A DNA stretch of 64,000 nucleotides from an uncultured bacterium (GTDB taxonomy: Bacteria > Babelota > Babeliae > Babelales > Babelaceae): positions 320,001 to 384,000 of the forward strand of contig CAWKFG010000001.1 in assembly GCA_963848965.1 (NCBI GenBank). The letters are read 5' to 3'. A program made the position numbers and the translations under genes. Each line of letters starts with the position of its first letter. The first letter of the stretch is position 1. Below the pieces are notes generated by a model. The model was not told the DNA's origin, did no database searches, and worked only from the letters and a program-made list of their open reading frames with translations. Positions 6,257 through 36,852 of the stretch are shown piece after piece.

Positions 6257-7413
6257 CAACCGACGCTCCTGCTATAGCACTAGTTGATGATATTATTAGT
6301 AAAGCAGTACATCTACGAGCTTCGGATGTTCATATAGAGCCTACGAGTACTTACTTGCGAATAAGAATACGTGTTGACGGTCTTTTGCATGATAGTAGTA
6401 CTATAGGCTCAGACTATGCACGACAAGTTATTTCTCGTATTAAAGTGCTTTCTCACATGGATATCTCAGAGCGTCGTATTCCCCAAGATGGAAAATTTAT
6501 CTTTTCTTATGAAAAGCACGCCATTGATGTGCGCGTAGCTACATTTCCTAGCATCTATGGAGAGAAGGTTGTTCTTCGTATTTTAGACAGAAGCACAACT
6601 GCACTTGCTTTAGAAGAGTTAGGATTTGATGCTATGTTGCTGGAAACAATACAAAAGCTTTCTCAACGAGCTACAGGTTTTTTTCTTGTTACAGGTCCTA
6701 CAGGATCAGGCAAAACAACAACATTACATGCAATGCTTGCTGCAGCACGAACGACATCAAAGAATATCGTATCACTTGAAGATCCTATTGAATACACAAT
6801 AGAGGGTATAACACAAGCACAGATATATCCTGCAATTGGTTTTACCTTTGAGCATGGTATTCGTGCTTTATTAAGACAGGATCCTGATATTATTATGGTG
6901 GGAGAAATACGAGACAAACAAACTGCACATGTTGCTTTACAAGCAGCAATAACGGGGCATCTTGTGTTAAGTACATTGCATACTAATGATGCTACAAGCT
7001 CTGTAGTACGGTTACTCGATATGGGTATTGAGCCGTTTTTGTTAAATGCTGCAGTAACAGGTGTTCTTTCTCAACGGCTTGTACGTAAACTGTGCAATGA
7101 ATGTAAATACCTTACGCCATTATCAGATGTAGAAAGTACGTTTATACAAGAGTATAAAATTCCTCTTGTAAGCTCATATATAAGTAGGGGTTGCACATCC
7201 TGTAGAGGAATAGGGTATAAAGGACGCATAGGACTATTTGAGCTTTTGGTTATGTCTCATGAACTTCGTGCTTTAATTATGCAACGACCTTCTTTTGATA
7301 CTCTTTACAAGCAAGCATGTACTGAAGGTATGAGACCATTATTGCTTGATGCTGCAGATAAAATAGATACAGGTAGTACGAGTGTGGTAGAGGTTATGCG
7401 TGTTCTTATGTGA
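6241..7413 (+). CDS. GspE/PilB-type secretion/pilus assembly ATPase (short form)
   Basis: ASDVHIEP, GPTGSGKTTTL, LEDPIE, LRQDPD, TGHLVLSTLH, CxxC...CxxC. Confidence 0.92.
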   Translation: MDVYVATDAPAIALVDDIISKAVHLRASDVHIEPTSTYLRIRIRVDGLLHDSSTIGSDYARQVISRIKVLSHMDISERRIPQDGKFIFSYEKHAIDVRVATFPSIYGEKVVLRILDRSTTALALEELGFDAMLLETIQKLSQRATGFFLVTGPTGSGKTTTLHAMLAAARTTSKNIVSLEDPIEYTIEGITQAQIYPAIGFTFEHGIRALLRQDPDIIMVGEIRDKQTAHVALQAAITGHLVLSTLHTNDATSSVVRLLDMGIEPFLLNAAVTGVLSQRLVRKLCNECKYLTPLSDVESTFIQEYKIPLVSSYISRGCTSCRGIGYKGRIGLFELLVMSHELRALIMQRPSFDTLYKQACTEGMRPLLLDAADKIDTGSTSVVEVMRVLM

Positions 7414-33688: not shown

Positions 33689-33715
33689 AAGGGCATGGTA
33701 TACATGCCCTTTTTT
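33689..33715 (+). terminator. Rho-independent terminator
   Basis: AAGGGCATG-GTATA-CATGCCCTT followed by T run. Confidence 0.8.
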
Positions 33716-33745: not shown

Positions 33746-34147
33746 TGCTAGCTAGGGGCTTAGCCCCTGTAACCCCAGCAAGGGCGCGCCCTTGCAACCC
33801 ACTTTGTCTGCTCAGAGCTACCGCTCTTCGCTCGTTCTTTTAAAGCAAAAAATCGTACCGATTTTTTGCAGTTGCACACCGCTACGCGAGTCTCCATCAG
33901 GGGAGGAACGCTCCCCTGCTGATGACACTCTGTTTACAGAACTATTGTTGGTATGAAATAACAAAGAATAAAACGTAAGTCAGCAACGGGCAACCAGGGA
34001 GTTCCCCTGGTTGCTTGACTTCGCGTAGCGACTGCTATTGTTAAAAAACGCTCAGCGTTTTTTAACGCAGAAAAAGAACAAAAGAAGTAAAAGGGTTCTA
34101 GGGCCTAAGGCCCTAGCAGGGTCCAGGGACAGCGTCCCTGGCTAGCA
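33746..34147. other. GC-rich pseudo-symmetric multi-hairpin non-coding element (MITE/REP-like or structured RNA)
   Basis: About nine hairpins, long-range complementary segments, terminal TGCTAGC/GCTAGCA. Confidence 0.65.
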
Positions 34148-34269
34148 ATGCCCCTAAAAGCATTAAAATAAAATTCAGTTATAATTAAAATAATAAGAAA
34201 TCTCTCGATTTGTGTCTACTATTTAGAGTAAGATAAAAATAGAGACATTTTATTTTGGGGGAACTGTGC

Positions 34270-36852
34270 ATGAAAGTGTACGTTATTCTTATTCTTTGTG
34301 CTTTCATCAATTTTTTTTCTTTAGAAGGGGCGAGTTCTACTGCTAATGCTGTTGTTATTGATAACAATAATAAGATACTTCTTGGCGGAATGATCTCAAA
34401 TGGCAGTGGTAACGACTTCTTGCTTGTTCGTTATAATCCAGATGGCTCCTTCGATACAACGTTTAATGCGCCTGGAATCCTTACTGGTAGACCGGGTGTA
34501 GTAATTACCGATATACGTGAAACGAATGACCAAATCAACTCAATTGTTATCGATAATAGTAATAGAATTGTCGTTGCAGGTTTTTCTAGTAATGGATTAA
34601 CGAATGATATTGCAGTTGCACGATACAATGATGATGGAAGTCTTGATACAACGTTTAATCCTGCGGGAGTAGGTTCTGGAGTTCCAGGTATAGTTATTAC
34701 TGATGTAAGTGGCTTTGACGATGCTGCCTATGCTGTAGTTATAGACAATAGTAATAGAATTGTCGTTGCAGGATCTACTAACAGCGGAGTAGCTACTTCT
34801 GTTGTAACACTACGCTATAACGATGATGGCAGTCTTGATACAACGTTTAATCCGGCGGGCATAAGTTCAGGAATTCCGGGTATAGTTATTACAACTGTTA
34901 CTGATGTTGATGATGAAGCTCGTGGAGTTGTTATAGATAATAATAACAAAATTGTCGTTGGCGGCTTTGCAAGAAGCTCTTCGGGATCCAGCTTTTTGGC
35001 TATACGTTATAATGATGATGGTACGTTAGATCCAACGTTTGCTACTCTTGGTATTTTTGTATTTGAGCGTAGCGCTAATGATAGAGCAAATGATATTGAT
35101 ATTGATAATAACAATAAAATTGTGCTGGCAGGAGTATCAAATGAAGGAACCAATAATGATTTTGCTTTAGTGCGTATAAATCCTGACGGAACATTAGATA
35201 CTACGTTTAACCCATTAGGACGTAATTCAGGGATACCCGGTATCGTTATGCAGGATGTTGGAGATAATAATGATACGGCAACTGGCCTTATTATTGATAA
35301 CAATAATAATCTTGTTACTACTGGTATTGCTCAAGTGAATACAAGTACAGTCTTTGCTACTATGCGTCATACAAATAGTGGTGATCTTGATATAACGTTT
35401 AATCCGGCTGGAACGCTTACTGGTATTCCAGGAATAGTTATTACTGAAATTATAGGGCTCGATCCTCTACTACCAGGTGAACGTGCTATTGCAGAATCTC
35501 ATGCTATAGCGCTTGATAATGAGAACAAAATAGTAGTAGCTGGTTTCTCTCAAGATATCCTTCAAAGAAATATAGTAACAGTACGATATAATAGTGATGG
35601 ATCGTTGGATACTACGCTTAATCCTGATGGGCGGCGTCCGGGAATACTCCTTTCTCTTTTAGTAGGACGAGGAATAGGCAGGCTTCCTATAGGATATCCG
35701 CAAGACGATCTATTGCCAGAGGCACTTGCTAGTTTAAGTCCTACACTTTTGCAGGAAGTAAGCTCGGGAGCTCCTATCTTTGCGATTCCAACTATTAGTG
35801 GAGAGAGCCCGCTTATTACGAGCTTAACTGATCCTGTGCTCACAGGAACTGCAAGTCCTAATGCGCTTATTACAGTCTTTAGTAACGATATTCAAGTAAC
35901 ACAGGTTTCTGCTGATGAGCAGGGGTTATGGAGAGCAGTGCTTCCTACGCTTACTGATGGTACCTATAATGTATATGTAGTTGCAGAAGATCCTCTTACT
36001 CGTTTTACGCTTGCATCTGATCGTACAGTTTTAGTAGTAGATACACATATGCCTACACCGCCGATTATTGAGAGTCCTGCACCTCATTCGTGGATAGATA
36101 CAACAGCTCCTGTTATACAAGGAACTGCAAAGCCAAGTTCGTTTATTACCTTGTTTCTTAATAATAGACGTATAACAACTGTTGTTGCTGATACTGAAGG
36201 ACGATGGACTTTTACCTCACCTGTGCTGCCAGAAGGAAAATATGCCTTATATGCCGTAAGTACTGATAGAGCTCGTAATAGAAGTGCTCGTTCTCAGGTA
36301 TATACGTTTACTATTGATACAGCTGCATTTAGAGCACCGCGTATTGTAAATCCGGTTGATAGGCTTGTTACAAATAGAAATAGACCAACAGTTACTGGTG
36401 AAGCTCGAGCAGATGCTGTAGTTACTATTGTATTAAATGGAAGGCAGATGGGGACAGTAAAAGCAAATGCTCGAGGAGGCTGGACATATACCTTTACAAC
36501 GCCACTAGCTGATGGAGATTATAGACTCTCTGCTACAATGCCGAGTCCTGCAGGTCCTACTCTTCTTACTTCTGCAATTACTACTTTTACTGTTGATACA
36601 GTACCGCCACGTCCTGCTATTATTTCTCAGATTTTAGAAGGAGGTCAAGCTTTGAGTGGTCTTGCAGAACCAGGAAGTACAGTAACGCTGTATTTAGATG
36701 GAGTATTGCTTGACCAAGTAGTTACGGATCCACGAGGAAGATGGGGCTATACACCACAAGACATCTCTGCAGGAACACATAGGCTTAGCATTACTGTTGC
36801 AGATAGAGCAGGAAATGTAAGTTCTATGGTAGAACGAACATTAGATTTATAA
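34270..36852 (+). CDS. Surface protein: delta-60 (DUF5122-like) beta-propeller repeats plus C-terminal bacterial Ig-like domains
   Basis: Repeated KIVVAG...RYNDDGSLDTTFN; GTAxPxxxVT...ADxxGxW...DxAGNxS Ig motifs. Confidence 0.85.
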   Translation: MKVYVILILCAFINFFSLEGASSTANAVVIDNNNKILLGGMISNGSGNDFLLVRYNPDGSFDTTFNAPGILTGRPGVVITDIRETNDQINSIVIDNSNRIVVAGFSSNGLTNDIAVARYNDDGSLDTTFNPAGVGSGVPGIVITDVSGFDDAAYAVVIDNSNRIVVAGSTNSGVATSVVTLRYNDDGSLDTTFNPAGISSGIPGIVITTVTDVDDEARGVVIDNNNKIVVGGFARSSSGSSFLAIRYNDDGTLDPTFATLGIFVFERSANDRANDIDIDNNNKIVLAGVSNEGTNNDFALVRINPDGTLDTTFNPLGRNSGIPGIVMQDVGDNNDTATGLIIDNNNNLVTTGIAQVNTSTVFATMRHTNSGDLDITFNPAGTLTGIPGIVITEIIGLDPLLPGERAIAESHAIALDNENKIVVAGFSQDILQRNIVTVRYNSDGSLDTTLNPDGRRPGILLSLLVGRGIGRLPIGYPQDDLLPEALASLSPTLLQEVSSGAPIFAIPTISGESPLITSLTDPVLTGTASPNALITVFSNDIQVTQVSADEQGLWRAVLPTLTDGTYNVYVVAEDPLTRFTLASDRTVLVVDTHMPTPPIIESPAPHSWIDTTAPVIQGTAKPSSFITLFLNNRRITTVVADTEGRWTFTSPVLPEGKYALYAVSTDRARNRSARSQVYTFTIDTAAFRAPRIVNPVDRLVTNRNRPTVTGEARADAVVTIVLNGRQMGTVKANARGGWTYTFTTPLADGDYRLSATMPSPAGPTLLTSAITTFTVDTVPPRPAIISQILEGGQALSGLAEPGSTVTLYLDGVLLDQVVTDPRGRWGYTPQDISAGTHRLSITVADRAGNVSSMVERTLDL

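Follow-up and report, generated by a model that had tools for sequence, protein, structure and literature searches.

Several kinds of bacterial repeat and origin resemble the element described here. MITEs of the Correia, RUP and ERIC type are reportedly gene-less, a few hundred bases long, dispersed and bounded by inverted ends. REP, BIME and REPIN repeats are intergenic and multi-copy; their hairpins carry a four-base tag at the 5' foot, their units stand as inverted pairs around a spacer or in mosaics of modules, and their spread is patchy. The canonical tags are GTAG/GTGG and CGTC in the parts of PMC6006769 and PMC3733652 that deal with them. Intrastrand triplex repeats (TM/PIT) are G-rich short intergenic hairpin repeats that a portion of PMC4666352 links to local instability. 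Single-strand origins of the ssoT type, such as those of pTA1060, pBAA1 and ICEBs1 (sso1), fold strand-specifically according to passages of PMC4595007, which place the pTA1060 origin at 6349-6549. The element considered here is real and, apparently, an unnamed REP/BIME-like mosaic repeat that likely acts as single-stranded DNA and has ends like plasmid single-strand origins. The literature searched, which left most subscription papers outside, describes neither a repeat family tagged with GGGT nor skew halos at bacterial repeats, and six motif strings returned only papers that were unrelated, judged by their titles. The main texts of PMC3733652 and PMC6006769 do not list a GGGT tag, and their figures or supplements could bear on this point.

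The window analyzed is a stretch of 64,000 nucleotides from an uncultured bacterium of the Babelaceae (genome G000; 1.73 Mb, 88.7% complete). The repeat element occupies positions 33754..34139 (386 bases, AGGGGC...GTCCCT), holds no gene and is built of two homologous arms back to back; its limits are those of conservation with four colinear copies. It lies between rplU, which encodes ribosomal protein L21 (33328..33669, plus strand; Pfam PF00829, E 4.6e-33), and a plus-strand gene for a secreted-type protein with DUF5122 propeller repeats and Ig-like domains (34255..36852; PF17164, PF19077 and PF17936). From its sequence, rplU has an intrinsic-terminator-like hairpin of its own at 33689..33711 (plus strand), upstream of the element, and similar hairpins are found 3' of rplU in most of 25 relatives. 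The rplU gene is not followed by rpmA here, no rpmA-like frame adjoins it in the 25 relatives, and the downstream gene varies. The word GCTAGC at 33747..33752 recurs at 34141-34146 and is a possible target duplication in this copy only. The first-pass annotation had counted the corresponding TGCTAGC/GCTAGCA stem as part of the element; this stem is particular to the studied copy and falls outside the conserved limits of 33754-34139.

Read outward from the centre, each arm consists of an inner hairpin, a mini-hairpin, an A-tract hairpin, an optional GAGC hairpin and GGGT plus a hairpin twice. The A+T-rich centre (33919..33989) is the most variable part of the element when copies are compared. 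On the left, the inner hairpin (33898..33918, plus strand) has a GAAC loop on the inward-reading strand and forms helix 1, in which five of seven pairs show double changes. The remaining left features read on the minus strand. The mini-hairpin CGC-GTA-GCG of the outward strand (33880..33888) was placed by arm alignment and has G-C or C-G as its middle pair; the A-tract hairpin (33845..33869) has 11 pairs and a GTA loop on the outward strand, this loop being G-N-A in 9 of 10 left-type arms; the GAGC hairpin (33814..33827) occurs in left-type arms only; and the terminal module (33754..33800), recognized from arm alignment and the covariation of both its hairpins, reads outward as GGGT plus hairpin, GC, GGGT plus hairpin. 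The right arm begins with an inner hairpin (33990..34014, minus strand) that covaries and again has a GAAC loop on the inward-reading strand. Its other features read on the plus strand: a mini-hairpin, TCGC-GTA-GCGA on the outward strand (34021..34031; arm alignment and covariation), an A-tract hairpin of 12-13 pairs (34040..34066), and a terminal module of the same outward composition (34093..34141). The right module was recognized by its match elsewhere and is common to other genomes of the Babeliae family, many phyla and small plasmids.

The hairpins that the first-pass annotation had named are all in place on the left (33754-33768, 33778-33795, 33814-33827, 33845-33869 and 33898-33918) and on the mirrored side (33990-34014, 34040-34066, 34098-34116 and 34123-34141), and its complementary words are found at 33880/34017, 33771 and 33796/34093, and 33746/34141. 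The predicted fold is strong, with a stability above that of all 100 dinucleotide shuffles in each of three foldings (z of -9.9 for RNA and -10.6 for DNA of the plus strand, and -8.3 for RNA of the minus strand). The element was said to be much more GC-rich than its flanks; at 49.7% this holds against the window (37.2%) and the right 400-base flank (35.2%), but only moderately against the left flank (42.5%). As proposed, it has no open reading frame: there is no frame of 60 amino acids inside it, and the longest ATG-started frame in the stretch has 46 codons. A scan for sigma-70 promoters gave no site inside the element. In the single DNA sequencing run consulted, reads cover rplU and leave the element uncovered.

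Which of these pairings are maintained? Sixteen arms align with one another when read outward, and the loop of the mini-hairpin is G-N-A on the outward strand in all of them. The local hairpins covary, with double changes in 14 of 23 pairs. Across four helices of the 16-arm alignment 98.4% of 367 cells are paired, 67 cells carry double changes and a single cell holds G-U. None of 500 shuffles scored as high and slid controls gave 37-59%, although the score is not a probability, as the arms are related. This test omits the A-tract hairpins, as the alignment puts their two types out of register. The proposed long-range rod of stacked multi-way junctions fares differently: its arm-to-arm pairs break at several positions in one or two of five full copies, whereas the local hairpins are kept in the same five. 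On this comparison the long-range pairing simply follows from the inverted orientation of the two homologous arms and is not a conserved rod. The two or three bases between GGGT and AGGG belong to the stem, and because this spacer is base-paired, GGGT is a tag at the foot of the hairpin.

There are seven full and two partial copies in G000, and all nine lie between called genes, with eight flanking genes pointing at a copy, in either direction, and ten pointing away. Five colinear copies are 82-88% alike, and conservation spans 33754 to 34139. One copy, at G000:C4:43478, carries some 220 bases of its middle in inverted orientation, the centre together with the inner hairpins, and the copy at G000:C4:268413 has left-type arms at both ends; arm exchange and one central inversion are thus seen among copies. 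No direct repeat at the matching distance was found at the other eight copies, so that the GCTAGC repeat is confined to one of nine and there is no consistent target-site duplication of fixed length. A longer copy that could represent a parent transposon with the same ends was not found in G000. By eye, an AGYTR-like word stands 0-3 bases past the last hairpin at about 10 of 16 outer edges, and it may be a true element end or a target preference.

Outside G000 the whole element is nearly absent. In 60 relatives the sole match is a 54-base end in G028, and there was no match in plasmids. The search of records labelled as phage gave seven short end matches in unannotated records. One record deposited as a bacteriophage, MT837061.1 (L027), is a clostridial-type piece that looks chromosomal, with genes for phosphate transport and a clostridial repeat in two copies. 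Used as a metagenome query, the right inner hairpin returned 24 matches, all of them unrelated hairpins. A viral pattern search gave no matches in its stricter form, and looser patterns gave 8 and 11 loci, mostly of one clostridial repeat. Behind rplU the module is missing from all 25 relatives read, but their differing downstream genes mean that these sites do not count as true empty alleles. The distance between G022 and G005 is too great for an empty-site comparison.

The end module is far more widely distributed. A pattern search found the GGGT-tagged double hairpin in at least 125 stretches of GTDB genomes; 79 module loci among the matches listed come from Clostridia, Magnetococcales, Alphaproteobacteria, Streptomyces, Desulfovibrionaceae, Polyangium, Chloroflexia and Turicibacter. 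Four carrier genomes have 66-198 module matches each, against 0-1 in reversed controls. The highest number belongs to the clostridial genome G263 (L226-L238), where the 198 matches lie in long gene-less mosaics of many G-N-A hairpins. Thirteen G263 stretches chosen for opposed pairs hold outward-facing ends, and the six of these that were printed out are gene-less mosaics of roughly 0.6-1.3 kb. In the family of the window 10 of 41 genomes match the module, three of them only once or twice, which is near control level; G022 has 16 modules and its congener G005 has none in 1.14 Mb. G022, G028 and G007 contain two-armed elements with other interiors, and these genomes and G263 share the layout of an inverted pair of units around a spacer. 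An 8-base word, GCCGTTAG, was seen by eye and without statistics inside all four two-armed G007 elements read (L405-L407). It is also present in both arms of the plasmid pRGI00763 (L403:640-720 and 1280-1350), on the same side of the GGGT module.

Among small plasmids, pRGF00221 (RepL), pRGI01449, pRGI00763, pTX14-2, pK1S1 and a related record carry the module, and two larger plasmids have it downstream of their repA. Across the seven small plasmids read, every module shares its strand with a rep-like or mobV gene, or in pRGI01449 with two unnamed genes. The pTX14-2 module aligns to pTA1060 6431-6553 (72%, E 1.7e-11), and given the published span of the origin it thus aligns with the 3' end of that origin; the stretch around this match is kept in 556 plasmid records, mostly from Bacillus. 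A profile built from the G000 arms picks up the pRGF00221 module (E 3.4e-5) and, weakly, that of pTX14-2 (E 0.04) but misses the pTA1060 origin, against which 3 of 16 arms score better than Markov shuffles at p<0.05. pRGI00763 has two outward-facing modules about 700 bases apart, one on the strand of the rep-like gene and the other just before mobV on the opposite strand, which is the layout of the studied element. The suggestion of a single-strand origin therefore stands for the last ~50 bases of each arm but not for the rest of the ~200-base origin: the upstream 150 bases of ssoT were not found in the arms, where the likeness stops after ~50 bases. Since the G000 arms match over this part only, the relation to ssoT, as judged from sequence, is one of resemblance and not of membership.

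The reading we favour, to which we give a probability of about 45%, is that of a gene-less repeat whose two back-to-back arms fold when single-stranded and, through their ssoT-like ends, signal host enzymes to start or re-start DNA synthesis. Each arm would fold when its own strand is single, and the folded arm would provide the signal. With one arm per strand, either strand of a released copy could become duplex again, as in the small plasmid with modules on its rep and transfer strands. A nicking enzyme acting in trans, perhaps from passing rolling-circle plasmids, would move the element, and recombination between inverted arms would flip the centre and swap modules. We infer both the priming activity and the route of spread. 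Against this reading stand the short extent of the likeness to ssoT, the negative searches for a mover and the uneven halo described below; the module could also equally have hopped onto plasmids, and an origin primes to the 5' side of its own strand, which by itself leaves a gain of G observed 3' of the near arm unexplained.

The best of the alternatives, although rather unlikely, is that these repeats are a third kind of REP/REPIN/BIME in which the GGGT at the base of the hairpin serves as guide tetranucleotide, paired arms are cut and moved by an unknown nuclease of HUH type, and the plasmid copies are passengers or have been co-opted. The tag lies directly 5' of a covarying hairpin, as is the case for REP guides in the relevant part of PMC6006769. 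The modules are intergenic, numerous in the four carriers, patchy in the family, and arranged in inverted pairs and mosaics, and CGTC repeats are likewise described without a linked transposase in a section of PMC3733652. Mobilization by an HUH enzyme had also been suggested for this locus, but no partner enzyme was found. Genes of the RAYT/TnpA family (PF01797) were not found in G000, which is 88.7% complete, or in four of five other carriers, and the fifth has a broken one with no module near. G000 has no Y1, DUF559, Y2 or MobV protein; its IS110 and GIY-YIG genes are not accompanied by the module, nor is there a module near any of the IS110, IS91-type, MobV or GIY-YIG loci read. No double-strand origin, Rep, relaxase or other mover was found, Rep families lying outside the profile search. 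A comparison of frames of 100 amino acids or more listed 27 genes common to G000 and G022 and absent from G005, of which the only mobile one is an IS-type transposase, and no partner emerged. At the 79 loci listed, the only gene families that recur beside the module are common host ones, ABC ATPases and sensor kinases among them. In small plasmids the module keeps a fixed position, which argues for a role there. G263 is a good system in which to seek the mover. Four short GIY-YIG genes of G000 (L042-L045; C4:521258, C4:523601, C2:4910 and C2:10072) each lie behind a split hairpin module unrelated to the element, and one of these loci begins at a tRNA 3' end.

The gain of G mentioned above forms a strand-specific halo around copies. 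At synonymous sites, measured against local baselines over all 18 flanks of the G000 copies, the observed/expected G-gain runs 1.96, 1.55, 1.45, 1.22, 1.13 and 0.98 over 0-2.5 kb, and z exceeds 3 in 11 of 18 flanks compared with 26 of 1192 control flanks. In each of the two partial copies the gain is on the terminal-module side and the other side shows a loss (z of 9.0/-3.4 and 5.4/-4.2). Up to 1 kb into active flanks, four-fold C stands at 0.294 vs 0.111 in genes pointing at a copy and four-fold G at 0.194 vs 0.094 in genes pointing away; these flanks were chosen by their own z, and the values describe the spectrum only. The studied copy has no halo (z of 0.2 and 0.3) and is probably young. 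In G022 the halo is weak (1.21-fold at 0-400 bases; z>3 in 4 of 28 flanks vs 31 of 762) and found mainly at two-armed elements. The sign is opposite at four two-armed elements of G007, with C at 0.25 vs 0.18 on the outward strand, and nothing clear is seen at three single modules of G026; these two samples are small and were compared without a wide baseline. Pooled raw skew gave no halo over 32 Clostridia loci and was flat or mixed in other phyla. Genes at the contig ends of G000 (C1:1-9000, C4:1-18000 and both ends of C5) are much richer in third-position G and C than the genome average, and these ends look like foreign DNA joined to the assembly.

Under the priming reading, folded chromosomal arms would change the polymerase that copies the neighbouring 1-2 kb, as a Pol I-type tract, and over time this changed use would leave a strand-specific gain of G. 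By analogy, the length of the halo fits a Pol I-type tract, for which a passage of PMC3167613 gives about 1.3 kb. It is improbable, in our judgement, that the halo and perhaps the rearrangements stem instead from breakage, with SbcCD cutting the hairpins, the flanks being resected and re-copied, and the repeat a passive parasite. G000 does encode SbcD, the stems have 11-13 perfect pairs, the decay over 2 kb is smooth, and deletions and one inversion are found among copies. However, breaks should leave the same mark on both flanks, and at the partial copies one flank gains while the other loses. The Pol IV route to such a halo also fails. The mutation signature of Pol IV is a gain of G after G; no Y-family polymerase was found in any of four genomes, and the gain of G is not in excess after G (odds ratio 0.93, compared with about 3 after C or T). 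MutS appears in ten places in G000, as one full protein and nine other MutS_V-domain proteins of 685-1193 amino acids, compared with one and two matches in two relatives.

Little probability is likewise left to a structured RNA, or to a terminator or mRNA stabilizer acting as RNA, the first of which had been offered as a reading of this locus. The predicted fold is indeed very stable, and seven of the eight genes pointing at a copy end 4-57 bases from it. Against this, the search of Rfam gave no match at the gathering threshold and none worth noting at E<=10, G-U pairs are confined to the one cell in 367, the long-range helices break between copies, both strands fold alike, and this copy sits behind the terminator of rplU. 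G-N-A loops are unusually stable in DNA. The two arms show these loops on opposite strands, and as they face opposite ways, no single transcript shows both in the G-N-A form. The local covariation, the strand-specific G-N-A loops and the opposed arms make it likely that the element acts as folded single-stranded DNA rather than as RNA. The part of the first-pass annotation that described a non-autonomous, multi-copy element acting at the level of single-stranded DNA is thus borne out by the copies, the local hairpins and their covariation. It is highly improbable that the ends fold into small intrastrand triplexes with GGGT as the third strand: the order GGGT-NN-AGGG...CCCT matches that of class I purine triplexes as defined in a portion of PMC4666352, and the spacer is not paired in several outermost hairpins of G000, but there are only 4 triplets where the search in that portion requires 6, and the supposed loop is Watson-Crick paired, its last base, a position that search left free, being complementary in 65 of 65 distinct modules and both spacer bases being paired in 67 of 70 second hairpins.

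The end module is common to a characterized plasmid origin and so offers a testable answer to the question of how REP-like repeats without a linked transposase arise and spread. A broader proposal, which we regard as quite doubtful, is that plasmid single-strand origins gave rise to an unnamed superfamily of repeats now widespread in chromosomes. Its members would be priming signals set back to back; they would spread although they carry no transposase gene, serve as numerous tiny points of replication start or restart, and alter the mutation spectrum of core genes over the 2 kb around them. If the repeat does cause the halo, it is a local, strand-specific source of mutation that doubles third-position C in adjoining core genes, and it would mislead analyses of codon usage and skew.

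How does the element compare with the known systems? Like MITEs it is gene-less, a few hundred bases long, dispersed and inverted at its ends, but these ends are diverged hairpin modules and not near-perfect inverted repeats, a consistent target duplication is lacking, and a parent insertion sequence was not found. It resembles TM/PIT repeats as a G-rich, short, intergenic hairpin repeat linked to local instability, and differs in that the stretch available as a third strand is too short and its loop is base-paired. With REP, BIME and REPIN repeats it shares intergenic multi-copy hairpins that are tagged at the 5' foot, the pairing of inverted units across a spacer, mosaics and patchy spread. 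However, the tag is GGGT and not GTAG/GTGG or CGTC, each arm of the 386-base unit holds four to five different hairpins, no RAYT gene was found in G000, and the module also occurs at plasmid origins. The ssoT-type origins lie on a rolling-circle replicon or an ICE together with a Rep or relaxase, whereas the nine chromosomal copies adjoin host genes without a replicon, have two outward-facing arms, and have a putative origin function. Like these origins, the arms of the element fold strand-specifically, with stem-loops that present G-N-A loops on the outward strand in all 16 arms.
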